A DNA stretch of 63,971 nt, the filler included, from Stramenopiles sp. TOSAG23-6 (taxonomy: Eukaryota), in the NCBI GenBank assembly GCA_900128565.1. It is 3 parts of 3 records of this genome, joined end to end, with 100 filler letters (N's around TTAATTAATTAA, not from the genome) between each part and the next. Parts side by side here need not be neighbours in the genome. Positions count along the whole stretch, not along the records: positions 1 to 22,444 come from LT636014.1; positions 22,545 to 44,974 come from LT636015.1; 1 more part is not named here. One strand, given 5' to 3'. A program made the translations under genes and the position numbers. Below the pieces are notes generated by a model, which was not told where the DNA came from, ran no database searches, and saw nothing but the letters and a program-made list of their open reading frames with translations. Shown here piece after piece: positions 2,971 to 38,462 of this stretch. Every line of letters starts with the position of its first letter. The first letter of the stretch is position 1.

Positions 2971-5829
2971 ATGGTGTGGGGTAGAAAAAAAGGAGGCGCC
3001 AGGCCAATGGAAGATGAGAAGTTACCATCTTCTACGACAGCAATAGTGGAAAGTAGTATTCCAGTAACGACGAAACATATGCCATCATTGATAGAGGAAG
3101 CCAAAACATCTAAAGCATCTCGAAAGAAGCGTTCGAAAAAAAAATCGAAAAAAGGAAGAGACCATCGACGTATTGTATCGTCTTCTACACGGAGTAAACC
3201 ATCAGATGTTGAAACTGGAAAAAATGATGGCAAAGATGGCAAAGTTGGGAAGCCACTAGGCTTAACTCTTGAAATGAATCTTATACCAAATGATTCCGCA
3301 TCGGATTCAGAGGCTCGTGGTGATAGTGGCAGTGATACAACTAATTCAGATTCGAGTGATTCGGAAATTTCAGAAGGGGGTATCGTCAACCGACAGACTG
3401 ATATTAGAGTGTCTCCTACTTGTATGTTTTCATTTGAATTTCAAATTTATTTTTTCATACGAAATTCTGTACCTAACAAATTTAAAAAAAAATTGAAATA
3501 TGTTTTACAATACATCTGCATTGCGACAAATGTCTCAACTAGAACAATTACATGAGCAAGGGGTACTAACAGTGAAGCAGTATACAGAAGCTCGAGATGA
3601 TCTTCTTGCTAAACAAGCGGGGATAAATATTGCAATAAATCACCGAAATCATCGCAAGCCACCCACTGAACCAAAACCATTGACACCAAAACCCACTGTG
3701 AAGGAACTAAATCTTCAAAGACTCTCTCCAAAGCATCGAACTGGATTAGAAGACGAGGATGTAAACGAAGATAGTTTTGACCAAGAACGAGAACAAAAAA
3801 GTATTACTCTAATACCAAGTGTACAGAAAGCAGCGATGCGTTGGAAAACACGGACGTCTATTGCACCGGGCACTAGTAATATTCTAGGCATGTACGTTTC
3901 TTTACCTAAACATATTTTAACATATTTTAACATATTTTTACCTAAATTTCGAAACTGTATTTCATAAAAAAAAATGTACCTAACGAATTGTTTTACTACA
4001 AAAAATGCTATTTATCATACATGGGTACAATGGGATTCGTACCAACGACATTATCACCAATAGCTGGTTCACCATCACATAATGCCGGGGATAATGGAAA
4101 TTTCTTTGGAGTAGCTATGCAAATGCAGATGCAACAGGCTGCATTACAACAGGCAGCCATTAAACACGCCGCGATGCAACAGGCAGCGATGCAACAGGCA
4201 GCAATACAGCAACAGATTATGCAAAATAGTATGGTGATGCAACAAATGCCTCACATGCAACAAATGCCTCACATGCAACAAATGCCTCATATGCACAATT
4301 ATCACCAGCTCCAACAACAGCAGTTTCAACACCAGTTAATGGAAAATAATCCTGGAGGTCTAGAAATGCCACAAAATATGTATCATAGTAGTCAATACAA
4401 CTCTATCCCTAGTGGCAGGAGTTATAGTTCATATCAGCATCCCAACGGAAGTAGTACCAATAGAAGTGCAGGCTATGATAATGGTTTTGATTCATCGGCG
4501 TCTGGGCGGAGTAATAGTAATAGAGGCAGTGTATTTCAACCGTATAACGCACCACCTAGTTTTAGATCAAGTAATGGTAGTTATACCAATTCATATAATA
4601 CAAATATTCGGGATACAGAAAGTGTAGGTGGCACAACTAGAGATAGAAGGCATAGTGGTAGAAGAAGTAACAATAGATCGAGAGCATCTCGTGGTTCATT
4701 TTCATCAACTGGATCTATGCCTAATAGAAGATCTGGAGGTGTAGGTAGCGATCGTCATCAGTCTGGAAGTGCTCGCTTATTACCCAAGCATATTCAAGTT
4801 AGATTCTGTGAATCTTTGCGATCTTTTTACATTAGATATGACCCAGAGGTATTGCAAGAGCCGGGTAGATTACCAAGTATTCTACGTAGTTATAGAGGGC
4901 GAGAAATGTATTTAGTTGCTGATATTGAACGACAGTTTGGATCTAGTCCAGAATCAAGAGCAATAGCGGCTGCTTTACAGACAAATAGAGGACCTCGATC
5001 AGTAAGTAGGGGTGTTGGATGGATAGGTAATAGTTCAAGTAATTCCTCAAGTGCTGCTGCAACAGCAGCGAGTGCGTCCGCAAGGCGTCTAAAATCGCCA
5101 AGAGCCCAAGGATTGTTTGACAACTTAAAAAATGGCCCATCAGGAGCAAAAACAAGTCGACCTAATACTCGTGTATCAAAGCGAGAGGATGATCAAGGTT
5201 CGATGTCAGAAAGATCAAAATCGAAAGATAGATATCCAGTATTACTTAGTCCATTGCCAAAGACCAAAACAAATGCACCTTTAAGTAGAACATTGAGTGA
5301 ATCTTCGATTAGTTCATCGGAATTATCTTCTAGCACAAAGCCAATAAGTTTTGCACTTCAAGAAGCTGCAGCGAATATCAATGATGACTTTCCTGAACTT
5401 GTTAACATAAATTCTAGTGAAGTTACAAGTGATGGATCTCCTACTAATCAACGACCAAGATTAAATCCACTTTCAGCAGGCGAAGCATCAACAATCTCTA
5501 ATCCAGATAGAATACACGACGTTGATGTTGGAAAATTTTATAAGAAGAAAAAAAAGAAAAAGAAAAAATCACCAAAAGGGCATAAAAAAAACAAACTGAA
5601 TACCCCCAAAAAGCAAAGACTTGAACGAGAAGCTGCTCTGAGATTACTAAAAAAAAATACAATAAATGTGAGACCAAAAGTTGCAGCTCCAAGACGAGCC
5701 CCCCCTTCGGGACCCCCACCAAAACCTTCAGGGCCTCCAGTGATAAGGTCGGCAATACATTCATCTAGGTCAAGATCTTCAAGGAGTGACTTAAGTGGGC
5801 GGAGAAATGCAGTAGATAATGAATATTAA
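2971..5829 (+). CDS. Low-complexity Q/S/K-rich protein, 3 exons (2971-3421, 3516-3891, 4023-5829)
   Basis: Three ORFs join in frame (...SPT-SALRQ..., ...NILG-MGTMG...) when introns 3422-3515 and 3892-4022 are removed. Confidence 0.75.
3422..3515 (+). other. Non-canonical intron GT...AT (94 nt)
   Basis: TT|GTATGT...GTACCTAAC...AATACAT|CT; restores frame. Confidence 0.8.
3892..4022 (+). other. Non-canonical intron GT...AT (131 nt, internal CATATTTTAA repeats)
   Basis: AT|GTACGT...GTACCTAAC...CATACAT|G; restores frame. Confidence 0.75.
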
Positions 5830-6219
5830 AAAATATTTAACAAATAAAATTTAATTTTGGTGAAAATTTTATGAATTAATATATTTTTAGGGGTATGGGC
5901 AATGAATACGAAGATATAGATAAAATTTCATTTCTAGATTTATTTTCATTGTGTATTGGATCAAACAAACACCAAAAGAAGAATCACTAGTAAATATTCG
6001 AATTATTTGTGATGTCTACGTATTCCGGTCTACAGCCGTTTTTTTGACCGTTAAAAGTTATCAGATACTAGGTGTAGTATCCTATACACGATACCCAAGC
6101 ATATAATACATAGCTGTGCCTAAATATGAACTAGGAAATATTCTTACTATGATTATCCTTCAAAGAGTATATATGTTTTCATGTAGATATACTAAATAGA
6201 AAAATGCTATAACACCGCA

Positions 6220-9746: not shown

Positions 9747-10617
9747 ATGCTTCTGATGTTGTATACAATACTAGTCGTGGTAGTTTGTATTTTGTTTTTA
9801 CTTTTACCTTCTTGGAGTATTTTACAATTTGTTCTTTTCCTAAGTTTTGTTTTGGGTGTTTTGTATGTTACACCAACGACATCCTTGTTTACGCAGCTGC
9901 GTTCCTCTCAAAACCGTGCCATATGTAAAAAGAATAGTGTAGAGCTCAATTTGAATAATAGCAATATTATCTCTTTTAACGGAAAACAATGGGTCAAAAT
10001 TGGACACACTGATATTTTTGACAAGAAAACTTCCATATTAATATCGAAACAAAATAATTTTCTGTGGTCTTCCCTTCAACTTCCACCAGTAGCTTTATTT
10101 CGGTTTGGTAGGGATTCTCCTATATATGCAATACAAGATGAATGCCCCCACGTTGCAATTGGTTCGTTGGCAGAAGGAGAAGCTGCCTCTCTCGAAGATA
10201 TTGAAGACTTTTCTGATGCGACGTGTAATGCAGCTGTTTCGTGCCCGATACATAGCTTTACTTTTGATCTTTCCACGGGTCAGTGCATTTCTAGAGATTC
10301 GTGTACTTTTTTTTTTTTTATCATTTTCAAATTCATTTTTTTTTAGTAAATAATCTTATCATTATAACATAGCTAACGATTTTCAAATTAGATGTATTTT
10401 CTTACTTATATGTGATGATGCTACTATTTATGAAACAATAATAAGTGAAGAGTTGTTTCCTTCTACTTGTGTGAAAAATAATGAAACGGGTTATATATGG
10501 CTATGCACGAAACCTAAAAAAAGACGTGATGATGAAAAGTTTCTTATTTCGAATGTTGAAGGCGACAAAGTTCAGATGCACTTGGTGAAATTAGCTCTAC
10601 AGAGAAAATATGGTTAG
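9747..10617 (+). CDS. Membrane-anchored Rieske [2Fe-2S] domain protein, 2 exons (9747-10302, 10412-10617)
   Basis: N-terminal hydrophobic segments; Rieske ligands DECPH...VSCPIHSFTFDLSTGQC; second exon CDDATIYETII...RKYG-stop is in frame after intron removal. Confidence 0.75.
10303..10411 (+). other. Divergent non-canonical intron GT...AT (109 nt)
   Basis: GT|GTACTT...TAGCTAAC...CTTATAT|GT; the internal AG at 10390-10391 gives a frameshift and early stop. Confidence 0.6.
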
Positions 10618-12077: not shown

Positions 12078-12131
12078 TAGGGTTGGGGGTTAGGGTTGGG
12101 GGTTAGGGTTGGGGGTTAGGGTTGGGGGTTA
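12078..12131 (+). repeat. 4 x 13-nt telomere-variant repeat (TAGGGTTGGGGGT), G-quadruplex-prone
   Basis: Read directly; lies between divergent genes. Confidence 0.85.
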
Positions 12132-12217: not shown

Positions 12218-14271
12218 ATGGATTCTGAGCATATATTCAATGGCATTGCTCAACAAGGGGCTCGAAAAGAGGGTGGAAGAGGCCGTGGAAGAGGTCATGG
12301 AAGTGGTCGTGGAAGAGGTCGTGGAAGAGGTCGCCGTGGAAGAGGTCGCGGTCGCCGTCACCATGCACAAAATGAAGTAAAACGTCACAATAGTGGTCAC
12401 AAAAGAATTCGTGAGAGAAGTTACAGTTCATCCAGTCGTCAGGGTAGTCGTGATGCTCCGCGTACTGTAAAAGATCTGGAACAGCAGCTTTTTTCGCAAA
12501 ATGTGCCGCAAGCACGCAAAAAGAATAATAAAAAACGGAGGAAAAAAAAGAAAAATTCGTTGAATATTAATGTAAATTCTGCGAATAGTTCACAAAACAA
12601 TGGCGTTCGGCGTTCACCTAGAGTAATTGCAAAAACTTTTCAGAACGATACTGAGATGCCGGATTTCACACCAACTATAAGTTCCGGAAAGAAAAAAGAT
12701 TTTATGACTTCTTCTACTTTTGCTTCTTTGGACATTGACACGCGTCTAAAAAGAGGTCTGGCTGAAGTAATGAAATATGTCACAATGACACGTGTCCAAG
12801 AACAAACACTTCCAACTGCTCTAAGTGGAGTTGATTTACTTGCACAAGCTAAAACAGGGACGGGGAAGACTTTGGGATTTCTCATCCCTTCGATAGACAA
12901 CGTCTTACGCTGTCGACAGCGTTTGAGTGGTGTTTCCATCATTGCAATTTCACCGACCAGAGAATTAGCTAACCAAATATGTACAGAAGCATCAAAGTTA
13001 TTATATTTTCATCCTAATTTTAAGACGTGTTCAATGGTGGGTGGAACAAATAAAAAAACTGATATCAAACGTATCAAAAGTGGCATCGATCTTCTCGTAG
13101 CAACTCCTGGCAGGTTGATAGATCACTTGCAGTCAACTCCAGGATTTCGTGAGCAGTGTGCTAGTGTAAAAGTTTTGATTCTCGATGAAGCCGATCAAAT
13201 GCTAGAGATGGGTTTCAGACCTGATCTTACACGAATTATTAGTTATTTACCAAAGGATAGGCAAAGTTTATTATTTTCTGCAACAATGCCTAAAAGTTTG
13301 ATGGATGTGTGTAAAATTGCAGTTAAACATGATTATAAATATATCAATACAATACCAAAAGATCAGCAGCAGACTCACAAAAAAGTTCCACAAGCTGTTG
13401 TCGTTGCACCAGTGGATCAAATTACAAATATGGTTATGAAAGAAATCTCTATAGAGATGCAAAGGCATCCAAATAATTTTAAAGTCATGATATTTTTTGT
13501 GACTGCTCGTTTGACCGGATTTATGGCAACTTTATGTCGAAAAGCTCGTATACCTACTATAGAAATGCATTCAAGAAAAAGTCAATCATACCGCACAAAA
13601 GCAGCCAAACAATTCCGTGATGGAACAAAACTGGTATTGTTTACGTCTGATGTATCCGCGAGAGGTGTTGATTACCCTGATGTGACGCTTGTCATGCAAG
13701 TTGGTATGACTGAACGAGAGCCTTACATGTATGTTTTATTTTTTTTCAAATTCGATTTTTTTTTCATACGAAATTTTGTACCTAACGAATTTTTTTTTGA
13801 AATATTTTTCTAAAATACATTCATCGTCTTGGTCGAACTGCTCGTGCAGCAAGTGGAGTAGAAGGTCGAGGAAAGCTAGTATTAGCCCCATTTGAGTCAA
13901 AATTTTGTCTTTCATTACTTACTGAGTTACCTATACAATTTGAGACGTATGTGCCTTGCAAAGATACTCATCCAGAAGTTTTTACTCATGTGACTCGGAT
14001 GCTGAATGATATAAAAAAAGATCCGGAAATGAGAAAAGCAGCTGCACAAGCGTATCAAGCATGGATTGGATTCTATAATGGTTACTTGCGAAAATTACGT
14101 TGGAACAAACCTGAACTCGTTCGCATGGGGACGGAATTTGCAAGGTCTATCAATGCATTGGACGTACAAGGAAACCCTCCAGCTCTTCTTCGACGAACTG
14201 TTGGGAAAATGGGACTGAAAGGAATTCGTGGTCTTACGATTGTGAACTCACCAAATGATTTAGTCTACTAA
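12218..14271 (+). CDS. DEAD-box RNA helicase (Mss116/RH25-26-like), 2 exons (12218-13728, 13821-14271)
   Basis: AQAKTGTGKT, SPTRELA, TPGRL, DEAD, SAT, ARGVD; motif VI YIHRLGRTAR forms only across the intron; N-terminal RG repeats. Confidence 0.92.
13729..13820 (+). other. Non-canonical intron GT...AT (92 nt)
   Basis: AT|GTATGT...GTACCTAAC...AAATACAT|T; contains no AG; restores helicase motif VI. Confidence 0.92.
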
Positions 14272-16391: not shown

Positions 16392-18179
16392 TTATGTAAC
16401 TAACATTTTTTTAGCAAATGTGCTCATACAACAACCAAATGCCTGTATAGGTGAAAATGGGTATTTAAAATCTAGAGAATATACATTCCTTCTCACTTTC
16501 CCAAAACGAAGCTGTTCTGTATCAATCCCAAATTCACTTTCTAGATGACATGTGTTGTAAAAAAATATTTTAAAAATTTGAAATTCGTTAGGTATGGTAT
16601 TTGGTACGAAAAGAATAAATTTGAAATTCATGATAAAAACGTACATGAACTTTCCACCTCAAGTAGAAAATTTTTTTTTGACGCTTTCTTTACACGACCA
16701 TCAAAATTGAGAGTCCACGCATTCAAATCTTTATTCCATTTATTGTAAAAAAATATAAAAAAAAAATCGTTAGGTACAAAAGTTTCTATGAAAAAAAAAA
16801 AAAAAAAAGTCGATATTATTTTGAAAACGTACACGATGGCTGTTTTGTACGAAATTGTAATAATTGAGACTGTTCTTGAACGCCCAAAGATGCATATTCA
16901 TTTCTAATAACCTCCTTCTCACCTCCGGTAGGTTTCTCCTTTGTAATTCGATTTTTTTGTTCCATATCAAATCGGTCACAAAGACTCATAAAATTAGCTT
17001 TCAATGCATCTTCATCATCATGACGTGGTAGTATCACTTTCATGTATTTTGGAAAAATATTTGAAAAAAAAATTGTTCGGTACAAAATTTCGTATGAAAA
17101 AATAAATTCGAAATAAAAAAAAAATAAAACATACATCGAGTTTGGCACTCGGGCTAAGATATTAGTCTCAAAACGAATATGGATTAAATCGTGAGCAGCA
17201 TATATTTTCAAAAATACTTTACATTTTGATGTTTCTTTGTTAGGTACAAAATTTGGTATGAAAAAGATATTTATTCAATTTTGAAAAAAACGTACATGAC
17301 TACTTTTCACCTTTAATTGAGGATTTCGTGCTCTATAATCAAAAAGAGAAAACTGCTTTCCAGTCATATTACTTATCATACACCCTAAATATACTGGACT
17401 TGACTCAGATGTTGGTATACTATCTATAGTTGTTAGCCTAAAAGTGTTATTAATTGTACTAAATATACAGAGACCCTTGTGCGTACTATTCATACTAGCA
17501 GCCATGTNTTCGTGAAAAAATATTTTTTTTTTGTCAAAAAGCTTGTTAGGTACAAAATTGTGTATGAAAAAAAATATATATTCATGATGAAAACATACAT
17601 CATAAATTCGCCCGATTGTTTGTGAAAATGCCAAGCAGTAACAAACGCACCGACGTATCGACGAATATATCCTAAACACCATATATCAGACACGGAATCA
17701 GTTACAGGAGATAAAAATGTTGCCTTTTGTCCGTGCATTAGTTGGTGCAGACGCTGACCTTCTGGAACCTCAGCAAAGTCCGTTGTTGGTTTCTCTTTAA
17801 ATATTCCTCGGAGCTTATTTGGATTATCTTTTATTGGTTCGCTTATTAAAGCATTACCCGTAGAGAGATCAAAGAGTTCATCTCCACTAGCAGAATACTC
17901 TTCGTAGGACTCTTCGTCGTCAGAAACATTATTTGAGCCTTCTTGAGAACTGTTATCCGAGTCTTTCTTAGAATCCTCAACATCTACAGTCACAAGTTCT
18001 GCCTGTATGTTGCTTTCTTTTACAGTGGGCGTACTTAATTTATTCACGTCTGTGCTGATTGGCTCACTTAGAATACCCTTCTCTACATTTGATTCAGTCT
18101 CTAAGGGAGCTGCGTTTAAATTAGTTTCGGCTACATCACCGAAAATATCCCAAACGTCATCGAACTTTTGATCTCCCAT
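16392..18179 (-). CDS. Tubby-domain protein, 6 exons (18179-17599, 17503-17296, 17199-17135, 17041-16833, 16737-16645, 16549-16392)
   Basis: Spliced product contains FETNILARVPNSMKV, KQPSWNKDLNAWTLNFDGRVKKASKKNF, LRFGKV, YSLDFKYPFSPIQAFGCCMSTF (Tub C-terminal motifs). Confidence 0.88.
16550..16644 (-). other. Non-canonical intron GT...AT (95 nt)
   Basis: AT|GTACGT...ATACCTAAC...AACACAT|GT. Confidence 0.8.
16738..16832 (-). other. Non-canonical intron GT...AT (95 nt)
   Basis: GT|GTACGT...GTACCTAAC...AATAAAT|GG; restores KQPSWN. Confidence 0.85.
17042..17134 (-). other. Non-canonical intron GT...AT (93 nt, in frame, stop-free)
   Basis: AT|GTATGT...GTACCGAAC...AATACAT|G; restores PNSMKV. Confidence 0.8.
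17200..17295 (-). other. Non-canonical intron GT...AT (96 nt)
   Basis: AT|GTACGT...GTACCTAAC...AATATAT|G; contains an in-frame stop. Confidence 0.8.
17504..17598 (-). other. Non-canonical intron GT...AT (95 nt)
   Basis: AT|GTATGT...GTACCTAAC...AANACAT|G. Confidence 0.8.
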
Positions 18180-21463: not shown

Positions 21464-22443
21464 ATGCCAAAGCGCTGGAAGCGGCGACTCCGAACTCAAA
21501 TGCGGTTGGCTCACGAAGCCAATGCATTACGTGTTCCGAATTCTTCATTGAATAACTCAAAAGTGGTTGAATCAAAGCAGCCCCAGGAATATTTCCCACT
21601 TGACGAAAAAGGTGCTGCTCGTTTTCTTAATGTAGAAGCGATGTCGAAGTCAGATTCCCCTACTGATCTGACGTATCATAGTGCTGGATTACCCATATTA
21701 TATGGTAGTTTAATTGATCTTCCTATTCCTATTCAGGAAGGAAGTGCTGATCTCAAAATAAAGTTAGTCGCCACTGGGGGAGAAATACAGTATTCTGTAT
21801 CTTGGGAGTCTCTCTGCCCAGTAAAGCATTTAGGTGTATCCCCTTCGAAAGTTCAGAAATACATTGAAAGTGAGACATCGCTTAAAAATTCTAATGAAAA
21901 TTCTACAATACCTCCGAGTATTTTTGAAAAAGAAGAGTCACTAGAATTATTGCCCTTAACTAATCTGAAAGGTTCGGACAACATTTCCCTGTTTATTCCT
22001 AAAGCTGGTGTTGTTACATTACATGTGCAAAATAGTAGTACTACCTGGCCCGTAAAGGATGTACATTTTCAAAATTGAATTTCGAATTTTTTTTTTTCAT
22101 AGAAAATTTTGTACCTAACGATTTCTTTTTTTATCTACACTTTTTTTCACAATACATGATGATGTAGTATTACACTACGTTGTCTCTTTAGAACACATTT
22201 GTCCTTTGGTAACGAAACGAAATATCATGTATTCACTTAAAAAGCAGTGTAACGATTTAAATTCGATATATCGTGATAGTCTTAGAGTTGTTGAAGAAAG
22301 TAGTCAAAATTTAGAAACACTTAGAAAGAAATTATGTATGTTTTATTTTTTTTTTTACAAAAAAATCGAATTTATTTTTTTTGAAAAATTTTGTACCTAA
22401 CAAATTTAAGGTTTTTTTTTTNAAANATTTTTNCNAAANACAT
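21464..22443 (+). CDS. Protein with GOLD-like beta domain and coiled coil; 3'-truncated at the linker (exons 21464-22060, 22158-22335)
   Basis: Frames join as WPVKD-DDVVLHYVVSL; GOLD similarity (KAGVVTLHVQNS...W...LHYVV) is tentative. Confidence 0.6.
22061..22157 (+). other. Non-canonical intron GT...AT (97 nt)
   Basis: AT|GTACAT...GTACCTAAC...AATACAT|G. Confidence 0.8.
22336..22443 (+). other. Non-canonical intron GT...AT (~108 nt) at contig end
   Basis: AT|GTATGT...GTACCTAAC...ANACAT; downstream exon missing, several Ns. Confidence 0.65.
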
Positions 22444-22444
22444 A

Positions 22445-22544: not shown

Positions 22545-24788
22545 GACATTGATGGATGCTCTTTTTGTATTTTTGCTTGTTTATCTTGATAACTTTCTGC
22601 TTTTGATTCATTCATATTTACATCCCATGACATTGATGGATGCTCTTTTTGTATTTTTGCTTGTTTATCTTGATAACTTTCTGGGTTTGATTCATTCATT
22701 TTTACATCCCATGACATTGATGGATGCTCTTTTTGTATCTTTGCTTGTTTATCCTGATAACTTTCTTTATAATTAGCAATGTTAAAGTCTTTTAACTGGT
22801 AATCATTTAATTTGTAAGACATCAATTTTTGTACCTGATCATCACCAGAAACAATATCATAAGCAGGTGTCTGAGCAAAATCGGAGGTGACTGCTTCAGT
22901 TCTAATGATATCCATTAAATTACTCGCTCGACGCTTTTTCCCAGTTGATTTCCTGTCCAAGCCTGGTGGATCTGGTAGCATTTCACCAGAGTGATTTATC
23001 TGTTTTTCATATACTTCCTTTCGTTTATTTTCAACTTTAGACATTTGACTATTTGAATATTGAGGTTTAGTAAATATAAGACTTGTTTTCTTCGGGGCGT
23101 TGACTAGTGTACTATTCATACGAACATGTTTCATATTCGTTATATTATCTATACAGAATTCTGTTTTATCATATTCCAAGTTTTTTTCGACATTCATGAA
23201 GTGATTAATCTTTGCTTTTAGAGATATTTTTTCCTCAGTTGACATTTTGCGTGATTTATTCTCCGCAGTAAAATGATTATCGTTGATATTGTATGGTTGA
23301 TTAAATTTCCGAAGAATATCTAGCAAATTAGCAATGTCATCAGTAGTACCATCCTGATTGACATTTCTATTATTTGCTATAGATGGCGTATCTTTTATAT
23401 TACATCGATTATTTCTATTGCTTGATATACATGGCGCGTCGTTCATATTATGCTCATTAAAAGAAAAAATAGAATTTCTTATATTATGTTCATCATATGA
23501 AGAAATAGATTTTTCCGCATCGCATAATGCATCATTTGCAATAGTCAACGCGGCAGTTTCTGCATTCATTTGTGTAGTAATTAGAAGGTTTCTCTTTTTT
23601 GCTTCAACTAACTCATGTCGGTCTTTTAGTATCGATTGGATTTTTATTTTCTTTACTTTCTGTTTTGCATCAGCTTGAATTCTTACAGATCTGAGAAGCG
23701 CCTCTCTTGCATCAAGTGCAAATTTCTTTGCCTTTTCAGCTTTCTTGTCAATGTCGTCATTTACTATATTTGATACATTTTTGTTCTTTACAAATCTTTT
23801 CAAAGTAATTAACTTTCGAACGTTATTGGCTAATCTATTTTTGGTTTTAATTGTACGTTTTGCTTGTACAATTTTAGTATTTGACATTTTTCCGGCTTTC
23901 TTGTCAATGTCGTCATTTACTATATTTGATACATTTTTGTTCTTTACAAATCTTTTCAAAGTCATCAGCTTTCGAACGTTATTGGCTAATCTATTTTTGG
24001 TTTTAATTGTACTTTTTGCTTGTACAATTTTAGGGACTTTCTCGACTTTTTCAGAAGATTTTCTCCTTTTATTTTTTCTAAATCTATCAATGCTTACAAG
24101 TCTTGCAATCACAGAAGGCGATTTGATTTTTTTACTTGAATTTTGATTCAAAGTTGCATTTACCATTTGTTTTCCAGATATTGTATCATGAGATTCTTTA
24201 TTCTTTTGATGGTGGCGTTTTTTTTTATGTACAACTGGTTGTAGATGAGTCGATTTATAATGTATTGTGAAAAATTATGTCACAAAAAAATTCGTTAGGT
24301 ACAAAATTTAGTAAAAATAAATAAATTTGAATTTAAGTATGAAAACGAACGTGTCTCGCACCTCCACCTGCAGCACCCCAGTCGACAATCCACTTATCCT
24401 TTTCTGGATCCCATAATCTTAATGTACCGAACATATCTTTTTTACTACCTGCTATAGCACGTACAGTACATCCTATTTTCCAGGGTCGATCTGGTTTTCC
24501 AACATCTTTTTTTATGTTACTTATTGTTTTACCTCCAAGTTCCTTCCAACTTATAGCACCATCTTGATTTACATCATATGAATCAAAAACGATAAGTATG
24601 GCTTCAGTAGAAGGCATGGGTCTAATACCTAATTTTTTGATACCTCGTACAAATTCACCATAGGAAAGTCGGAAGTTTTCATTCTTGTCAGAAGCTTCAA
24701 AAAGTTGCTTGTGTGTTACACCTTTTTTTTTAAACTGTGCCTTTATCCATTGTGCCTCTTTCTCACTTGACGCTTTTCCTTCCGCCAT
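22545..24788 (-). CDS. EF-hand protein with internal repeats, 2 exons (24788-24351, 24259-<22545), C-terminus lost in gap
   Basis: DKNENFRLSYGEF and DVNQDGAISWKEL EF-hands; joins ARH-YKSTHL; 156-nt-period duplication ~23739-24032 and 84-nt tandem repeats 22545-~22766. Confidence 0.75.
24260..24350 (-). other. Non-canonical intron GT...AT (91 nt)
   Basis: AC|GTTCGT...GTACCTAAC...AATACAT|T. Confidence 0.78.
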
Positions 24789-25066: not shown

Positions 25067-28000
25067 TTAATTCCATGGCCCAATATTATCAATACTACCA
25101 TTATCACGCAGACGATGTTGATGAGCACTACCAAACATAATTTTACCTCTTACACTGAGATGTTTCTTGTCAGCATTTGATTTTTTTATACTCAAAGAAT
25201 TGTGTGGTGAAAGCATACCATGTATTCCTGTTAAAGTTTCAAACTTTTTGCCCTCGGATTCTTGTATATTCTTGTATGAGGGAATTCCATTTACTAGTGA
25301 TACGGAAGGTAATCTATGTTTCAATCTGAGATGACCTCTATAATTAATCCTTCCAGAAGGTGAGTATTCGCGACCACTCGGATCATTTCGACGAGCGGCA
25401 TATTTTATATTACCTTGAATACGAGCTTTTCCATGATATGTTTTGGATGTACCATTAGGGCCAAGTACCAACACAGATGTCTCAACGGAATCATGCTTTT
25501 GATTTTCCCAGTGATGGAGTGGTGTAGCTTTATCATAGACTCGATTTCTTTCATTATGTATTTTGGAAAAATATTTCAAATTTGTTTTGTTAGGTACAAA
25601 ATTTCGTACTAAAAAAAAATCGAATTTGAAAAAAAATAAAACATACATGCCCATATAATCTTCTTTGCCAGTGTTGTGATTGAGGATGTTTCTGTCCTGT
25701 AGGTGTTTTCAAAACACTTCTTGGTGTTTGTTGCCGGGTAATCAGCACAGGGAAGTAATTGGTGTCGGAAATATCAGTAAGACTCCTTGGAATTGATGTA
25801 TCCATGGATACTGAATTTATATCTCTTAGTGTAGATGCTTTCATAGCTGTTATTGAGCCATAAGGGATGTCCGATACCCAAGGTACCGTTGTTGGTATTT
25901 TCCCTTTTCTGATTAGACCTGAAAGACCTTCTTTTGCATTCTCTCGAATATGCATATGTCTTTCCATTACCAAATCATGAAATAATTCACAAAATCGATT
26001 AATATTAATTGTCCCACGAAGATCTATATCTATTATTTGATTGATAAAACGAACTTGAGAGAGTGGAATTTCAATACCCAATAGATGCAAGGCCTTATGA
26101 AATTCTTCTGAGGTCAAACACCTAGAGTTTGATGTTGATGCTGATGCAGTCAGCATTGGTTTCATTCCACGTAATATATTATCATATAACAGAGGCTGAA
26201 AATTTTCACGACATTTACACAGCTTTGCAACTACTGTAGCAATAACTGCAATACATGATATCGAATTTTGATTGTCTTCTATATCTTTAATATCCGAATC
26301 CGTATTTCTGTCACTTTCTTTATTATACAGTTTTGAATCATAGCTTGTATTTACCCCTAAAAAACAACCAATATTTTTAGTATCTTTATTATCTCTTGCC
26401 GGCGTTTTATGGCGAACGTCTCTATTTCCTTTATTTCCTTTATTTTCTTTCCTATTTTTACGTTCCTGCAGAATATGTTTTTGTGATGACTTTTGGTTTG
26501 ATACCTTTTGTAAATGTTTAGTTTCCCCATTATTGTCAAAGTCTTTGAAGTCATATGATAAATCATTTTTATCTTTGGAAATTGTGTTGCCATCGTCCCA
26601 GCCTTGTACTATTTCCTTATTTTCATTTATTGGTGGAGATTTTGGGCGTCTAATTGATGCACTGAGTGACCTTTCATCATCTTGCTGGCATTGTAAACGT
26701 TTAAACTCGACAAAAGAAAATGCACAACTTTCATCTTCGATATCTTCATTATTCACATCGCAAATATCGTGTTTGTATGTATTCGATTTAATTGTAATGT
26801 TTACATTGGAAGAATTCCCGTTTTGTACAAATGTATTATTTTGCCTGCAAAGAACTGGTGCTTGAGCCAAACCAAAATATCGAATATTTTTATTTTTCAT
26901 ATTTTTATGAAGTATCTTGTTTACACTGGAAGCATTGCCAAGTACATGAATAGCTTTGTCTGGCCTAATTGGATTGGAATTATTATTATGTTTTACATAT
27001 TGTTTGCGTCCTAATGAACCAACGTGTTTTTTATGTAGACTGCTGAATCTTTTTCTATACAGCTTATTCCTATGCAAATCTTTACCAAGTGAGATATTAC
27101 TCCTCGAACGCCAATGTACTCTAGGATCTACAGATTCAATTACTGCAGTGTTGCATATAGAAAACATGTATTACGAGAAATATTTTAAATTTGATTTTTT
27201 TGTTAGGTACGGAAAACAAATAAATTTCAAATTTATGAATTTAATACGATTACGAAATCTCATAAATAAACTACATTTCAGCAGCATTAAACGTACATTC
27301 GAAGGGAATTCGCAGCAGCCAGCGCTGCAATTTTTGCAGCTATTGCAGTTTTAGAACAAATATTTGCTCTACAAGAAATACGAAAAAAACGTCTTCCCAA
27401 GTATCCTCTAATTGATGATTGTATAAGTGTAGAAGCCAAGTGATCTTCACTGCAGTATTTGTTTTTTGGCTGATGACATATGTTTCCTGATTCATTTAAT
27501 GCACTGTAATTATCTGACTGATTTTGTTTGTCATCATTATGCTTTGGCATTTCTAGAAGTTTTGTACAAATCACATTTTTTGAACCAGAATCTTTCATTT
27601 CAATTATATCGTTAAATTTTGGTTTAATTTCAGATTTTAGTTTTTCAGATTTTATTTTTTTAGATTTTGATTTTGCTTCAGATTTTCTTTCAGATTTTAT
27701 TCCATTTTCTGCAGCACCCCCTTCAGTCACTTCTTGAACAGTATTAATTATGGCACTCATTTCGTGTAGTGCAACTACTTGGTCAGCTTGATCACTACAA
27801 AATTCTTTTTTCTCAACTATTTGGTCAACTTGATCACTACAAAATTCTTCTTTCTCAACTATTTGGTCAACTTGATCACTACAAAATTCTTCTTTCTCAT
27901 CAAAAATTTCTTCATTTATTTCTTCTTCTTTTACTTTTTTCCGAAATCGATCAATACTAGTCAAATTCCGAGGAGCTTTTCCAAAATTATTGGTAATATT

Positions 28001-28635: not shown

Positions 28636-29855
28636 ATGGCGACAGGAACAATATCTTCAGCAGACGAGCGTTTCTTTACACCTCGATCTACCGGCGCCCG
28701 TGGAAATTATTGTTCTTCTGAAGATGAAAAAGAAGAGAGATATTACGTGGCGACACCGGGTACGCTTCAGTCAAACAAGTCATGGACGTCTGATGCAGAA
28801 TATGCCACCCCTAGAGAGCTTAGTTACGGTTCGGCATCTGATAGTAATGATGGATATCAGCATGATTGGTCGTCTACTGCTCGACGTGGAGTTACTCCTG
28901 TACTACCAATGCCTTTTGTTACAAGTCAGTATGATACATACCAACAGCCGCAATCTGAACAACAACTACAACAGCAACAAGATCACTATATTCCCAGTGC
29001 ACCAGATATGTCACAACAACGACAAGTTGGTATCTATCCAACAGGTGGAAAAATATCTCCTCCAAGACCTCCCCCAGTCAGTCAGATCCCACAACAGTTG
29101 CAACCGGCACAGCAACTTCAAGTAAGACGACAGTTACTAAGGCAGCTTGAGCTGAAGGAACAAAAAATGTTACAACAAAAGAAAATAGCTGAAAATCATC
29201 GCCAAGGACACATTAAACCACTCAGTAGTAATGCTGTTTCCTCGGAAGAAGCTGCTGGTCTAGCAGCAGCAATGGCGCTTCAGTATAATAGTACAAAAAA
29301 ACAAAATTCAACGCCATCTGTTACAAATGCAAACCATTTAAATAACCAACAAAATTCTACTGCAGATATTGAACCTGTGTATCAAGATACAGGAGGAGAC
29401 ATTGATGATGAAGATATAAAAAATATATTTTCATATGCTCGGCACAATCGATGCAAAGACTTAGAACAAATATTGCTCAAAGGTGTTCCAGTGAATGTTC
29501 GCGATCGCTTTGGGAATACTTTACTTATTGTACGTTGTCCACTTTACTTTTACTTTTACTTTTCATAAAAAAATTCGTAGTAAATTTTGTACCTAACAAA
29601 AAAAATCAAAGAAAAAAAAAATATTTTTTCACAATACTTGTGGCTTGTCAAAATGGTTTGAAACGTGTGGCAAAACTCGCTCTTAGACGTGGTGCAGACA
29701 TAAATGCAACGAACTACAAAGGGAACTCTTGTCTTCACTTTTGTTTTGCTTTTGGATATGGCGATTCACTCGGGAGTTATCTGATATCAAAAGGAGCCAA
29801 TACAACTTTATTAAATAATGAACAAAAAACATGTTATGAAGGAGTTGCTAAATGA
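28636..29855 (+). CDS. Ankyrin-repeat protein with disordered N-terminus, 2 exons (28636-29529, 29640-29855)
   Basis: Splicing gives GNTLLIVACQNGLKRVAKLALRRGADIN...GNSCLHFC. Confidence 0.87.
29530..29639 (+). other. Non-canonical intron GT...TT (110 nt)
   Basis: TT|GTACGT...GTACCTAAC...AATACTT|G; restores the ankyrin motif exactly. Confidence 0.82.
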
Positions 29856-30022
29856 AATTAAATGCGTGTGATGAAAACATTTGAAGTATTATAAAGGTAA
29901 TTATTAAATTTACTTTTCATCATAATATGATTTAATATTAAATACTCGCAGAAGGTGAAAATTTCCGAAATATAGTGCGCTATAAAATGTTCCCCTTTTC
30001 AAGATGAACTATGATATCCTCC

Positions 30023-31747: not shown

Positions 31748-31981
31748 AACTATGGCAATCTGCTAGAGAAGATATGAAGCAAAGTAATCCGTGTATCGGG
31801 TAATCGTATAGTACTGATAAAGCACACGAACGACACGTGCCAAATTGTCCTTTTTCTGCTGTTTTTTTTATCAGCTGCGGCCAGAAATTAGCCAAGCTAT
31901 TATGATAATTCGGCTTCAGCCTGAATTCAGCAGTCACGTGCAACACACGCGAGGTCGCTGTAAAATTGTCATACATTTACT

Positions 31982-32590: not shown

Positions 32591-32760
32591 TGTTCTTCGT
32601 TCTTTAGTGTCTCTGTAAATTATGGTGACCTTTTCTGGGTACTTTAGAAGGAAAAAATCAGTAGAAAACCCACTTTGTCAAACTAACTTGAAAAGAAAAC
32701 CTACTTTGTCAAACTTAACTTGTTTAGTTGCCTCATACTCAGATTTTTTTATTATAAAAA

Positions 32761-33423
32761 CTACTCAGATTTCTCATTAGATTCTTTACCATCATTTAAT
32801 TCTTTCTCAATTGCTTCCTTTGCGCGGAATACTTTAGATTGTAGGTACAATGAACCACCGTTGGAAGGGTCATTTGCCTCGAAGTATTTCGTATATTTCT
32901 CATTTATTTCACTCATATTCGAAGAGCCCCTTTCTACATTTAAAATATCATACGCTTCGGCTATATCCATACCATCTTTACGAAGAATGCTCTTTGCAGC
33001 TTCTGTAGCACCACCACCCTTGGCAGCATTCTGCTTTGCTTCCGCAAAAGCTTGCATAAATGCTTGTCCAAAAATTTGACCAACTGTGATGACCAACTGT
33101 GCTATGATTCTCCCAGCTGGGCCACCGATTCCACGTTGATGTTGATACATTAAACTGTTAGGTTGAACTATCTGAGAATGTCGATATAATTGTTGGTGCC
33201 TCTGATATCGTAATCCATCACGTCTTTGACGTAACCGGTCAGTGTCTAGTGGTTGTTGTGAACTAACCCAGAGTGAACGGTGACCAATTGTACGACGCAC
33301 TAACGCGAACGAACTAGGCATATGACGGAATTTCATATTTCGAGGAGATCTGTGTAATAAATGCATATGACTTGTACTATATGCTCTGGATGTCACACGG
33401 TGGGCAGTGCGGAGAAAAGACAT
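32761..33423 (-). CDS. PAM16: Mitochondrial import motor subunit Pam16/Tim16 with N-terminal extension
   Basis: GQAFMQAF, MDIAEAYDILNV, YFEANDPSNGGSLYLQSKVFRAKE. Confidence 0.88.
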   Translation of the reverse strand: MSFLRTAHRVTSRAYSTSHMHLLHRSPRNMKFRHMPSSFALVRRTIGHRSLWVSSQQPLDTDRLRQRRDGLRYQRHQQLYRHSQIVQPNSLMYQHQRGIGGPAGRIIAQLVITVGQIFGQAFMQAFAEAKQNAAKGGGATEAAKSILRKDGMDIAEAYDILNVERGSSNMSEINEKYTKYFEANDPSNGGSLYLQSKVFRAKEAIEKELNDGKESNEKSE

Positions 33424-33684
33424 TATTACAAAAAAATATTATGACGAAAACTATCTCGCATACAGCTATAGCTATAGTGAATAGTTTCAGCAAACAGCAA
33501 ATCACGTGTCTGTCATGACCAGTTTGGGTTTGTACCATTTTTTACTACTTAAATGGGGTTGGTGAAACACGTTAAAAGTACACAAGCAAAAAGCACACAC
33601 ACTCAAAAGAAGCAATTAAGTTCAGTAATTTGTTTTATTGCATTACATTTCCTGGAAAACACACAAAGATATTTGAATAGCACC

Positions 33685-34619
33685 ATGTTTAAATTAATAT
33701 CTGGACGTATTTGCTTTCAGTTAAGTAGAAATTATACGTGCTATAGATCTATCACCAATTCAATATCCAGCCAAACAAACCTTAGTAGTAGTCTCTTTTC
33801 TCAAAGTCCATGTGTTCATTATTTGTCAACAAAAACCACAGACTCTAAATCCACTCCATCATTCGATCGAATTAAACAAGGTCGATATGGAAGAAATGTA
33901 GGGCCACCAAAAAAATATCAATGGATATTTAAAATGTTAGGTTGGGATAGTGAAGAGTCTCAGATGATAAGACAGGCGAATTCACTGATGGATCGCGTTG
34001 CCAGTACAGTAGAAATCAACGACTTTTTTGACGCTGCCAAGCTCCCACGAACTTTTAAAACTACCCAAAGTGTTTGTGTGATTCATGCGTGGTTGATTAA
34101 TAAAATTTTATTAAAATACCGAGAAGAAAACGGGGAAGAGACAGACAGACCTTTACCCATTCAACAAGAATGTGCGTTTTTTTTTGCATTGCACTCAATT
34201 TTTTTGTACCAAATCTATCGAGTACCTAACGATTTTTTTTTGAAATATTTCTCCAAAATACATTTTTTGATGTTCTCTGGAAAGACACAGCACAAAGAGT
34301 TCGTGAAACTCCAGGAATAATTGAACTTACTGTGAATAAAAATTTAAGATCAGTACAAGAAATGAGTTTTGCACAAATGTTGGAGTATGACTACGGTTTT
34401 GCAAAAAAAGATGATAATAATTTAGAATTAGGCGCGGCTTTATGGAGAAATCTCTTTGATGGTGATGAGAATGTCGGGGATGCAGAGGTGGAGTTAGTGG
34501 CAAAATTTATGAGACAAGAACACCAAAAACTCGTAGATATTTCTAATAGAGATATGGAAGCTATTCTTTGGGGTGAATTCGAATTTGATTCTTTGAAAGA
34601 CGTAAAAAAAAAAAATTAA
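33685..34619 (+). CDS. Ubiquinol-cytochrome c chaperone Cbp3/UQCC1-like, 2 exons (33685-34171, 34264-34619)
   Basis: LPRTF...IHAWLI, EFFDVLWKD, EYDYG, LGAALWRNLF; presequence-like N-terminus. Confidence 0.83.
34172..34263 (+). other. Non-canonical intron GT...AT (92 nt)
   Basis: AT|GTGCGT...GTACCTAAC...AATACAT|T; restores QQEFFDVLW. Confidence 0.83.
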
Positions 34620-34669
34620 AAAATTAAAAAATTAAAAAATTAAAAAATTTCATTTTTAAAACATTTTTT

Positions 34670-36999
34670 TTACTTTCCGCCTTCAACTTTAATTGCAGCT
34701 TCCATTAATTTTTGCATTCGAGGCAGCATACGTTTCGAATCATCCATTAAGCCAGCAGTGACAAGGCAGTTGTCAAACAACTGTTCCGCAACATATTTTG
34801 TGAAAAAATATTTTTTTTTTTTGGTTAAAAAAAATCGTTAGGTACAAAATTTCGTATGAAAAAAAAATATATATGATGATAAAAACGTACATATTTTGCC
34901 ATTTCTGGGTTTTGATTTTTAGCAGAAGCAAGTGATACAATAATAGGATGTTCTGGATTGAGTTCCATAATTTGCTTTGGTAAACTGGACATTCTTTCCG
35001 ATCCACTTCGAGTTTGTTGATGTTCAGCCATGACCATCATTCGACGAAGAGCTCCTGATTCATGATCAACAATTATCGCTGGAGAGTCATACAATCGATC
35101 AGTAAAATTAACTTCCGCAATTTTATTCTCAAGAGCCACATCTTTCAACCATGATTGTAACCCTTCTTTTTCGTCAGAATTTAATATGGATGTAGATTTT
35201 GATTCCGAACTTTTTTCATCTTTCTCAGAATCATTTTCGTTTTCAGTATCTTTTGCAGGGGTAAGATCACTCACATCAGCCGATTCTGCACTCATGTATT
35301 TTGAGAAATATTTCAAAAAAAAAAAACCTAAAATGTGTTAGGTACAAAATTTCGTACGAAAAAAAAATTTCATAGTAAAAAAAAAAAATAAAACATACAT
35401 TACTGGTCGACTATTAAATTCGCCAACATTTGTCATCACAAAATCATCAATTGGCATATACATAAATAAGACTTCTGCATCATGTTTTTTAAAGACTTCA
35501 TAGTAAGCAGATTGTTCAGCCAAATGTCTCTCAGGAGCATATAAATAATAAATATTTTTCTGAGAAGGTGGGCAGCGAGTAATGTATTCATCTAATGAAG
35601 TCAATTCACCCGCAGGAAGAGCAGAACTCTCAAAACGGAGTAACTTGGAAATATCATTCTTGTTTTCAAAATCAGTACAGACACCTTCCTTCAAAAATTG
35701 ATTATATTCATCATAAAATTTAAGATACTCATCATCATTTTTCTTACCTTGATCATTCAAATGTTTAATGAATCGCTTGGTTAAAACTTTGCTAATTCGT
35801 CGAATCAACAAAGAATCTTGCATTCCTTCACGCGATATGTTTAATGGAATATCTTCACTGTCAACAACACCATGAACAAAACGTAACCACTCAGGTAAAA
35901 GTTTAGCCTTCGAATCAATCAAAACTTTGCGAGAGTAAAGATTTACTCCAGGATCCATTTTACCCATTCCCATTTTTTCAGTATGCATATTTCCTACGTA
36001 GAATAACGCTTTGACAGATATTGGAGCATCCGCGGAGAAATGAAGTTTATAAAGAGGGCGATCATACGCATTCGCAATATATTTGTAAAACTCATTATGC
36101 TGTTCCTCGGACACTTCAGATTTTTCTTTAACCCAAATGGCTTGAACAGTATTTACTTTCTCGCCATTCAAATATATAGGATGGTTGACAAAGTTAGAGT
36201 ATTTTTTGATGATATTCCGAACAGTAGCTTCTTTAGAAAAGTCTTTACAATCTTCTTTTAGATGCATGACAACTTTCGTACCTCTTTGAACGCCCTCGGC
36301 TTCAACAATATCATAGGAACCAACGCCATTAGAAGACCACAACTGTGCTGGTTCTTCTGTCTTATGACTTTTAGTGAATACATCCACTTTATCAGCTACC
36401 ATAAAGGAAGCGTAAAAACCAACACCGAATTGTCCAATAAGTGAAGACTTGACATCCGAGCTAGCACTTGACTCAGTTGCAGATTTCACAAATTGTTTTG
36501 TGCCAGAACGCGCAATGGTTCCAATATTGTTATGTAATTCCTCTTCTGACATACCGCATCCCGCATCGTGAATTGTAATAGTACCCGCAGTTTCATCTGT
36601 AGTAATGCGAATTGATAATTCATCACCGGAACCCTCAATGGATGCACCCGTTACCTGTAAGTGACGAGCCTTTTCTATGGCGTCAGATGCGTTAGAAATC
36701 AACTCTCTAAGAAAAACTTCCTTATCGGTGTAGAGTGAATTTGTCACAATATCCAATAGCTGAGACGTTTCTGCTTGAAATGAGCTATTACTTGACTTAG
36801 CGCCATCCTTTGCCACTGCTTCAGGTTCTTCAACCTTTGGTTCTTTCGGAGCGTCAACGTCGTTAATTTCCACAGCACGCTCACTTGAAAATGATCGGCA
36901 AAAATTTGACGTTGTAGAAACACCACGATAAACTCTGCAAGACTTAAGAACAGGAACAGTCCTTGAAACAACCTTTTGAAAAAAACGAGATGCAATCAT
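34670..36999 (-). CDS. TRAP1: Mitochondrial Hsp90 (TRAP1/Hsp75), 3 exons (36999-35399, 35293-34891, 34792-34670)
   Basis: FQAET, FLRELISNASDA, IGQFGVGFY, GVVDSEDIPLNISRE, ELNPEHPI, EQLFDNCLVTAGLMDD; no MEEVD. Confidence 0.92.
34793..34890 (-). other. Non-canonical intron GT...AT (98 nt)
   Basis: CAAAATAT|GTACGT...GTACCTAAC...CAAAATAT|GT; restores AKY-VAEQLFDN. Confidence 0.85.
35294..35398 (-). other. Non-canonical intron GT...AT (105 nt)
   Basis: AT|GTATGT...GTACCTAAC...AATACAT|G; in-frame stop inside; internal TAG would frameshift. Confidence 0.87.
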
Positions 37000-37386
37000 T
37001 GTTTGCAGCACAATATTTTATTAGTGTCGTGGACTAAAAAACTGTTTGTGTTTATGTATTGACTTTTGTCCTATGTATACTTGCGCAAAGGTCTCTCCGA
37101 ATTCCTCGATAGAATTGTGTGTTGACACCAAAAATCTGACATGATGCATGAGCGGAGATTCAGTTCATTATTTTCTTCATTTTTTTGCTACGGAAATTTG
37201 TACTTAAAGGACCGGTCGGTACCCAGTGATGTTACGACAGAAACACCAGCACCTACTTGTAGTAGTACACTTGATCTAGTTCATTATTTGGAACTAATAC
37301 ACATTGTAAGTGATTATATAACGGCTTTTTGTTTTATTTGTGAGACAAAACTGTTCATTAGACAAAGAGATACATAAGCTGATAGT

Positions 37387-38462
37387 ATGGTGAAATTTGG
37401 TCATCATATATTGAAACACAGTGCGAAGAACAGTGGGGTAATTCAAGAGGACCTTTACATCAACTACAAGCAACTGAAGAAATCTATTGGTCGGAAGGAT
37501 GAAAAAGAATTCTTTGCACTATTTGAGAGTGAAGTGGAAAAGGTTCGAAAGAGTATCTTATGGATTACAGATGATTATGAACGAGTGATGAGTTGCGCTC
37601 TCGGCTCGGACTTTGTTGTTCAACTCAACTGTCTCCGCCAACGTACGTTTGAAGATCACGAGCTGGACGCTATTAAGAGTTTCGCGGAGATAAATCGCAC
37701 TGCGTGCCGTAAAATTCTGAAGAAGTTTGACAAGAAGATGGGAACAAATGTCCAAGATTCGAGATTACGGATGGTCGATGTAATGCTTGCGGAACCTATC
37801 GCAGATTTGGAAGTTTTAGTACGTTTTCAAAATTGATTTATTTTTACAATTTCAATTTTTTTTCTCTGAAAATTTTGTACCTAACGAATATTTTTACTAC
37901 AGAAACATATTTTCCCACAATACATGTACGTTCCGCTTCTGGTGAAAAGAAACGAAACGCGGAAGGTTGCTGGTGTATCACTGCCCCATTAAACAAATGC
38001 CTCGAAAAAATAGCACCAAATTCATCCATTGCTCGGATAGCAATAAAGACAATTTTGTTTTTACTTTTGCTTGGTCTGATTGTCACTATATGGTATTTAA
38101 CTCAATTTTTAAACAAAAACAATGTGACAATCGATATATTTTTTCAGCTTGGTTTAGCTTTTGCTTTTCTTTTGGCTTGGGCAAATGGAGCCAATGACAT
38201 TGCAAATTCTGTCGGTACATCCGTTGGTGCTGGTGCATTAACAGTAGGACAAGCAATTCTTCTTGGTTCAATTGCGGAAGCTCTGGGGGCTATGACTATG
38301 GGTAGTTTTGTGTCAAAAGAAATTTCCAAAGGCATTATCTCTCCGATTGACTACGAATCTGAACCAGATGAATTTGCATTAACTATGCTTTGTGTATTAA
38401 TTGGTTCAGGATTTGTTACTTTACTTGCAACTATTTATGGTTTTCCAATATCTGCGACGCAT
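37387..38462 (+). CDS. SPX domain fused to PHO4/PiT (SLC20) phosphate transporter, apparently truncated (exons 37387-37818, 37926-38462)
   Basis: MVKFG..YINYKQLKK..INRTACRKILKKFDK (SPX); GANDIANSVGTSVGAG, GFPISATH (PHO4 signature); no C-terminal half follows. Confidence 0.8.
37819..37925 (+). other. Non-canonical intron GT...AT (107 nt)
   Basis: TA|GTACGT...GTACCTAAC...AATACAT|GTACGT; internal CAG at 37900-37902 would frameshift. Confidence 0.75.

Follow-up and report, generated by a model that had tools for sequence, protein, structure and literature searches.

The systems closest to the introns described here are the introners of Micromonas pusilla and Chrysochromulina sp. In Micromonas these introns, family IE1 for example, derive from transposons and resemble miniature inverted-repeat transposable elements (MITEs), with the element bringing the 5' splice site and the 3' site coming from a duplication (PMC11282704), and in Chrysochromulina they supply the 5' splice site but borrow the 3' site from a 4-bp duplication, with no inverted termini (PMC9860276). 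The MITE-derived introns of Fritillaria borealis most commonly have AG-AC and AG-AT borders, and its major spliceosome is thought to have adapted to them (PMC11282704; 10.1101/2025.08.15.670264). Among stramenopiles, Blastocystis has 346 U12-type introns, mostly AT-AC, and a full minor spliceosome (PMC5608401; 10.1101/2022.09.24.509304), and GT-AT is documented as a rare terminal pair of U12-type introns (Physarum preprint). Here we analyze a family of 25 short, similar introns, best read as running from GT to AT, in 63,971 nt of DNA (filler included; the whole stretch is called the window below) from Stramenopiles sp. TOSAG23-6 (assembly GCA_900128565.1).

Like the introners of Micromonas, these are many near-identical short introns in sense orientation in unrelated genes, the removal of which leaves the length of the mRNA unchanged; there, however, 3 nt (TCA) are duplicated, an ordinary AG serves as acceptor, and the inverted termini stand out more clearly (PMC11282704), whereas here we see a putative 2-nt duplication of AT and an AT end. 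With the Chrysochromulina introners they share the division of labor between element and target, and inverted termini that are absent or weak, but that haptophyte retains canonical splice dinucleotides and a 4-bp duplication (PMC9860276). The survey that reported the latter began from annotated introns, so that a GT-AT family would, we infer, have escaped it. A transposon-like origin, non-AG 3' ends including AT, and a 3' border aided by duplicated exonic sequence are shared with Fritillaria borealis (PMC11282704), in which the 5' end is AG and the borders are highly diverse, in contrast to the GTAYGT donor and strong CTAAC-type branch motif found here. Euglenid non-conventional introns also combine non-canonical borders, inverted ends, junction repeats, and a suspected MITE origin (PMC11282704), although they have no conserved donor or branch motif and show stable pairing of their ends, whereas in the present family these signals are conserved and there is no significant structure. 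As for U12-type introns, GT-AT occurs there as a rare pair and Blastocystis, a lineage related to the marine stramenopile group MAST-3, keeps AT-AC minor introns (PMC5608401), but their defining donor, branch motif, and branch-to-3'-end distance are absent here. The available part of the MAST single-cell genome paper mentions introns only in its methods, and our literature search, outside which supplements lay, turned up no account of introners in MAST-3 or of any GT-AT intron family.

The reading that we prefer, and to which we assign a probability of roughly 0.7, is that of an introner-like family removed at GT...AT, with an origin as a DNA transposon and duplication of the dinucleotide AT.

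The intron family and its removal from transcripts

The window was searched with a profile built from 15 obvious copies (nhmmer) and by inspection. The profile gave 26 strong matches (E from 1.6e-21 to 4.7e-10), and the addition of three divergent members (3892, 10303, and 27296) and subtraction of four mirror copies, which lie within a 100% inverted repeat, leaves 25 distinct introns, or 29 with the mirrors. They are AT-rich, measure 86-131 nt, and are distributed across about 17 genes, in every case (25/25) in sense orientation within an open reading frame (ORF). Each copy is 66-91% identical to its nearest neighbor from a different gene, the copy in a DEAD-box helicase gene being 91% identical to copies from two other genes, and over all pairs the mean identity is 0.70, compared with 0.60 in shuffles. 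In about 57 kb of unique sequence, ∼84% of which is covered by long ORFs with 16% outside them, all 25 introns belong to the family. No canonical GT-AG intron was found in the window, and a scan for ORFs that could be joined by introns with AT, AG, or AC ends returned only alternative registers beside family introns or matches opposite long ORFs.

The copies follow a common plan, AT^GTAYGTTTT ... TTTTTC(G/A)TACGAAATTTTGTACCTAAC(A/G)A ... (G)AAATATTTTT(C)C(A)AAATACAT^G, where ^ marks a splice border. The donor has G at +1 in 24/25 copies, T at +2 in 25/25, A at +3 in 23/25, C or T at +4 in 25/25, G at +5 in 23/25, and T at +6 in 25/25, and a branch-like motif (TACCTAAC) is present in 25/25, reading CCTAAC in 21 and CCGAAC, CCAAAC, CCTAAT, or GCTAAC in the remaining four. 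The distance from its branch-like A to the 3' end, obtained by script (and by eye for copy 27296, at about 37 nt), is 32-45 nt. At the 3' end of the intron there is T at -1 in 25/25, A at -2 in 24/25, C at -3 in 21/25, and A at -4 in 24/25, so that the last two bases are AT in 24/25, TT in one, and AG in none. The upstream exon ends in AT in 19/25 cases (P = 5e-15 against window composition, in which the AT dinucleotide has a frequency of 0.096) and in T in 23/25, and the downstream exon opens with G in 16/25 (P = 4e-7, or 0.003 when a first-codon-position G frequency of 0.35 is used). We class the family with the introners; its donor and branch signals are of canonical type, and U would take the place of the canonical last base of the intron. 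A first-pass annotation of this DNA had given the same three junction counts, which our position table reproduces exactly, and a branch-to-end distance of ∼30-45 nt, in agreement with the measured range; its count of 25 copies is right for the whole window, although only 19 of them lie within the span 3420..37925 to which it had assigned them, with 6 beyond.

Removal from GT to AT leaves exactly one phase in which both flanks are open in 25/25 copies, and retention would cause a stop or frameshift in 24/25. The exception, 17134, has 93 nt and no in-frame stop, and its retention would therefore add 31 residues without breaking the protein. The TRAP1/HSP90 gene bears on the 3' border itself. Its three exon translations abut with neither gap nor overlap when compared with three homologues at both junctions, and at the second junction the segment VAEQLFDN survives only with an intron end at AT. 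A public gene model for this locus (P0002), 100% identical in blocks to the window, pairs these donors with the first in-frame AG past each AT end, which lies 3 nt downstream in one intron and 12 nt in the other, and as a result one residue is missing from the first junction and the conserved VAEQ from the second. Because these residues are lost relative to the homologues, homology sets the 3' border at AT and not at the nearby AG. Gene models built under GT-AG rules are unreliable for this organism. Across the gene (34676-37017, minus strand), P0002 also omits several internal coding segments of the long exon. In database searches the best match of the TRAP1 ORF was a protein labelled as from a MAST3 assembly (identical in blocks), followed by a metagenome protein at 80% identity and then by oomycete and ochrophyte proteins at ∼55-60%, which points to a MAST-3-like heterotrophic stramenopile; the host genome appears to be that of a compact, MAST-3-like marine member of the group.

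For RNA we used contigs of four seawater metatranscriptome runs, aligned to 22545-42544. One contig of the polyA run X3, which has a depth of 10.1 and 43 letters on its short side, leaves out 110 nt, from 29527 to 29638. The ends of the skip read TT..AC and are movable by 4 letters (TTGT), a range that covers the GT...TT register of intron 29530, and an AG 15 nt past the branch A is bypassed. A second X3 contig ends at 34889, two letters inside intron 34890, with 4 letters unaligned, where the spliced form predicts ...TAT^GTTGCG; we take this as a weak hint of splicing. Most of the contig joints listed connect different family copies and are repeat artefacts. A search for a spliced protein across 37819 found only the read-through genomic ORF P0122 when exon 1 was the query and nothing closer than 63% identity when exon 2 was used. 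On the combined evidence of reading frame, TRAP1 collinearity, and one RNA contig, the copies are removed as introns.

In three of the four runs, to each of which >1,000 contigs aligned, the summed contig depth over family cores (25556-25646, 34172-35398, and 37819-38566) was ∼220-2,650, and in flanking exon bins it was mostly in the range of roughly 0-12, with a few higher; in the fourth (polyA) run the cores reached only about 7-16. A very large number of copies, unspliced RNA or DNA, or excised introns that are stable could each account for the high depth of the cores.

A possible target duplication and the source of the acceptor

According to the preferred reading, a short AT-rich element would have spread through many unrelated genes, always in sense orientation and within coding sequence, each copy bringing its own GTAYGT donor and CTAAC-type branch motif and ending in (A)CAT instead of YAG. 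The first intron base would be G and the last U, the latter alone being non-canonical where G is the rule. The surroundings, AT^GT...CAT^G, would mirror the canonical AG^GT...CAG^G, and any AG past the branch motif but short of the 3' end would be left unused. The element itself may be a small non-autonomous DNA transposon with termini GTAT...ATAC, inserting at (C)AT(G) with duplication of AT. The upstream copy of the dinucleotide would then remain exonic and drift only at synonymous positions, and the downstream copy would become the last two bases of the intron and hence its acceptor.

Comparison of the dinucleotide flanking each intron upstream with that at its 3' terminus gives AT/AT in 19/25 cases, TT/TT in one, and mismatched pairs in five. 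AT is near-constant in both places, and since it is the same in nearly all copies, duplication and target preference are not separable from these pairs. Copy 29530, the sole intron not ending in AT, has TT upstream as well, and to derive this TT/TT pair from AT by mutation would require an Asn to Ile change together with a matching change within the intron, at a position that does not vary in the other copies, which supports duplication. The flanks also suggest a palindromic, CATG-like target, (C)AT(G), with C at exon position -3 in 10/25 copies (P = 0.008) and G at +1 in 16/25. Palindromic targets are of the kind that transposases prefer. The termini (GTAT/ATAC) are symmetric only when AT is counted as flanking sequence. 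A longer duplication of 3 or 4 nt (ATG or CATG) was considered and rejected, as the base at -3 matches in only 10/25 copies. The first-pass annotation had proposed a 2-nt AT duplication that supplies the acceptor. The TT/TT pair and the palindromic target speak for this proposal, and the upstream TA of 37819, the very short inverted terminus, and the lack of an empty site among the sequences searched speak against it; from the sequence we regard it as plausible but unproven.

Several observations weigh against the preferred reading. The perfect inverted terminus is only 0-4 nt when taken as GT..AC, or 0-6 nt when the flanking dinucleotide, which is not always AT, is included, and self-complementarity of the copies is weak (mean z = 1.07, with z > 2 in 6/25). 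Neither an empty site, nor an intergenic copy, nor an autonomous element was found in the window or in pattern scans of viral and metagenome contigs, and within the window, by profile search and ORF map, there is no strong family copy outside ORFs. The TA upstream of 37819 does not fit a simple duplication of AT. The last 43 nt of the 25 copies hold 103 AT dinucleotides, ∼4 per copy, and AT alone therefore cannot fix the 3' site, a further determinant perhaps being the conserved A(T)ACAT context or distance. For the second step of the major spliceosome, G(+1)/U(-1) is not known to be an established combination. As the copies are related by descent, arguments from conservation are weakened. Finally, the X3 contig with the 110-nt skip differs from the window at 5 of 259 letters and could therefore stem from a strain without the intron in its DNA, and no transcript was seen to span any of the five informative junctions. 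The 15 contig joints listed, out of 45, include none at 24350 or 37819, which is neutral as to the register.

Part of this evidence would suit GT-AT introns that arose with no duplication at all, either by spread through RNA (reverse splicing, reverse transcription, and recombination) or by blunt insertion between AT and G, with AT^G acting as a "protosplice" context. All 25 copies are in sense orientation and in ORFs with none intergenic, the inverted termini extend over very few bases, no relative with a transposase turned up, and the TA upstream of 37819 is not a duplicate of the AT at its 3' end; moreover, the mRNA is identical under both models wherever the flank is AT. Against such an origin stand the TT on both sides of 29530 and the palindromic-looking flanks, with C at -3 and G at +1, that are expected of transposase targets, and a T at the end of the upstream exon gives no better pairing to the canonical 5' end of U1. 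Spread that is sense-only and genic-only is, besides, also typical of DNA-based introners (PMC9860276). We consider an origin with no duplication rather unlikely, though it is the strongest of the alternatives.

Splice register and type of spliceosome

Most of the junctions can also be read two nucleotides to the left, as AT...AC. The first dinucleotide is intact in 24/25 copies in the GT-AT register and in 19/25 in the AT-AC register, the last in 24/25 and 20/25, respectively, and both together in 23/25 versus 16/25 (Fisher P = 0.037). The junctions that can tell the two apart are those in which the upstream dinucleotide is not AT, namely TT at 3422, GT at 10303 and 16832, AC at 24350, and TA at 37819; the TT of 29530 is uninformative because that intron too ends in TT. 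These five informative introns, singled out in the first-pass annotation, are real: all are GT-AT, and when shifted left they become TT-AC, GT-AT, GT-AA, AC-AC, and TA-AC. The codon strings that had been predicted for the GT-AT register (CCT ACT TCT, GAT TCG TGT, CCA TCG TGG, AGA CAC TAT, and GTT TTA GTA) match the sequence, and at 37819, the fifth case, the two registers read Leu and Tyr. In the other four the upstream copy departs from AT, as had been noted, by a single base that is at a third codon position and synonymous in 4/4, an outcome with a chance of 0.06 and the one expected if the upstream dinucleotide is translated. The sequence GTAYGT matches the canonical donor, in its pairing to U1 and U6, only with cleavage before the G. 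GT-AT, which the earlier annotation had also favored with the upstream dinucleotide exonic, is thus the better-supported register, with termini that are better conserved and are uniform in the informative introns, a donor in register, and synonymous changes upstream, and on these indirect arguments we judge it very probably correct.

The reading as AT-AC introns (AT GTAYGT...AC), the removal of which might fall to a divergent minor (U12-type) spliceosome, draws on the 19/25 copies that can be read in this way with unchanged mRNA, and the terminal bases A(+1) and C(-1) are known to be compatible. Copy 29530 retains an AC end, and 48998, the only copy with A at +1, turns into a perfect AT-AC intron. 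Since the left-shifted reading of 48998 gives the same mRNA, the duplicated AT could rescue a G1-to-A mutant by a shift of register. The related stramenopile Blastocystis, furthermore, has AT-AC U12-type introns, and GT-AT termini are otherwise reported mainly in non-canonical U12-type introns (Physarum preprint). However, 9/25 copies would be without AT or AC, the informative copies would open with TT, GT, GT, AC, and TA, and cleavage would no longer be in register with GTAYGT, which is strongly conserved. Nor are the U12 rules followed, as the first-pass annotation had correctly stated. A U12 donor ([AG]TATC[CT] or [AG]TATCC[TC]T) occurs in 0/25 copies, the U12 branch motif TCCTTAAC has no match on either strand of the window, and the branch-like motif lies at 32-45 nt and not at about 10-15 nt from the 3' end. 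An AT-AC register is, in our judgment, improbable.

Returning to GT-AT, a donor of the extended GT type and a CTRAY-type branch motif are both present, as in U2-type introns, and only the terminal AG is missing; donor and predicted branch signals thus appear to be of the major-spliceosome type. In 8/25 copies an AG lies between the branch motif and the 3' end, and in 5 of these 8 it is 13-23 nt from the branch A and its use would break the frame. A standard spliceosome is expected to use an AG at 13-23 nt past the branch A. It is possible, and we suggest it only tentatively, that the major spliceosome of this organism has changed its 3' rule, such that CAU^ is accepted or preferred over YAG^ and AGs 13-23 nt past the branch are bypassed, and that one introner family makes up essentially its whole intron complement. 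Removal by pairing of the inverted ends, in place of normal splice-site logic, as proposed for euglenid non-conventional introns, is hardly credible, for although ATGTAT and ATACAT can pair (in three GTAT-type copies the minimum-energy fold contains a 6-bp stem) and the non-canonical 3' border and bypassed AGs would suit it, RNAalifold finds 0 consensus pairs in 23 copies, 6 copies folded singly do not outperform their shuffles (z from -0.11 to -0.65), part of the stem is lost in GTAC-type copies, conservation is highest in the canonical-type donor and in the branch motif, and the borders of 29530 form a direct (TT/TT) and not an inverted repeat.

Copies along the window and consequences for gene prediction

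The coordinates of the 25 copies are collected in Table 1. Five of them (16644, 16832, 17134, 17295, and 17598) interrupt a single gene (16395-18209, minus strand) within about 1.1 kb. The borders of 10303 are the least certain, as this is the weakest member of the family. In the SPX-PHO4 gene, the first 7 nt of intron 37819 (GTACGTT) recur as the first 7 nt of the downstream exon (37819-37932), and eight registers therefore give the same mRNA; the origin of this copy may differ from that of the others. The PHO4 (PiT) transporter domain is cut short, as its frame stops just past intron 38463 (window 38463-38640), and this locus may be a chimera joined at a repeated copy of the intron, or else the gene may be truncated.

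Table 1. Members of the intron family in the window. In the text, each copy is named by the coordinate of its first base; ^ marks a splice border.
Position	Strand	Length (nt)	Phase	Gene	Borders and remarks
3422..3515	+	94	1		upstream TT (informative); GTATGT...ACAT
3892..4022	+	131	2		AT^GTACGT...ACAT^G; divergent member
10303..10411	+	109	1		upstream GT (informative); donor GTACTT; end ATAT; divergent member, profile E = 0.29
13729..13820	+	92	2	DEAD-box helicase	directly before ...IHRLGRTARA
16550..16644	-	95	1		
16738..16832	-	95	1		upstream GT (informative); end AAAT
17042..17134	-	93	2		branch motif TACCGAAC; sole copy in frame and without stop if retained
17200..17295	-	96	0		end ATAT
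17504..17598	-	95	2		contains one N
22061..22157	+	97	0		donor GTACAT
22336..22443	+	108	1		Ns in 3' part; downstream exon masked
24260..24350	-	91	0		upstream AC (informative); donor GTTCGT
25556..25646	-	91	0		
27166..27296	-	131	2	ankyrin-repeat gene	divergent member
29530..29639	+	110	0		TT^GT...ACTT^GT; 110-nt skip in one polyA metatranscriptome contig
34172..34263	+	92	1		donor GTGCGT
34793..34890	-	98	0	TRAP1/HSP90	end ATAT; junction ...PEMAKY^VAEQLFDN
35294..35398	-	105	2	TRAP1/HSP90	junction ...NSRPV-M-SAESADV
37819..37925	+	107	0	SPX-PHO4	upstream TA (informative, Leu vs Tyr)
38463..38566	+	104			follows ...ISATH of PHO4 domain; downstream frame ends after 8 codons
45490..45580	-	91	0		branch motif TACCTAAT; mirror 63466-63556 (+)
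45684..45781	-	98	0		branch motif TACCAAAC; mirror 63265-63362 (+)
48910..48998	-	89	0		AT^ATATGT...ACAT; sole A at +1; mirror 60048-60136 (+)
49146..49231	-	86	0		end TTCAT; mirror 59815-59900 (+)
56719..56811	-	93	2	IP3R/RyR-like channel	

The four mirror copies belong to an inverted repeat of 6,859 nt, 100% complementary, with arms at 45075-51933 and 57113-63971 and 5,179 nt between them. It begins right after a run of Ns and extends to the end of the window, and it has the look of a chimera from assembly or amplification, not of a biological feature. Ns are found at 10742, 10755, 15464-15509, 17508, 22422-22544, 44500, and 44975-45074, several of them within family introns, in a pattern of single Ns scattered in homopolymer-rich stretches and of paired 44-N runs. 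A telomere-repeat-like sequence, CCCTAACCCTA (≤1 mismatch), occurs 12 times compared with 0.31 expected (9406, 12078-12127, 40969, 41270, 43075-43091, 43324, 45199, and 63837). The matches fall in short intergenic stretches, some beside gene starts, with four forming tandem CCCCAACCCTAA units at about 12.1 kb, and the sequence may be a promoter or boundary motif.

Other candidates were set aside. Six suspicious ORF pairs proved to be ordinary gene starts and not introns. Of two GT...TAG candidates, the one at 11014 (plus strand) falls within a hydroxylase ORF on the opposite strand, and that near 10640 (minus strand) sits past the stop of the hydroxylase gene. Scans with a family-core pattern matched 47 times in viral contigs and 11 times in metagenome contigs, all by chance; outside the motif itself none of the matches resembled the family profile. 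Searching the window against Rfam and for tRNAs gave no match, the minor snRNAs U11, U12, U4atac, and U6atac included.

The 3' AG is among the most invariant signals of eukaryotic gene expression. If our reading is correct, the family would constitute a natural experiment on the choice of site at the second catalytic step, and would test whether the known G/G or A/C pairs are obligatory for the first and last bases of an intron. The family would also provide a stramenopile case in which a mobile element gives the donor and branch site and its insertion gives the acceptor, which bears on the long-standing question of why the exon flanks of introns resemble splice sites. For these abundant uncultured marine grazers, predicted proteomes that are based on GT-AG rules are probably systematically damaged.

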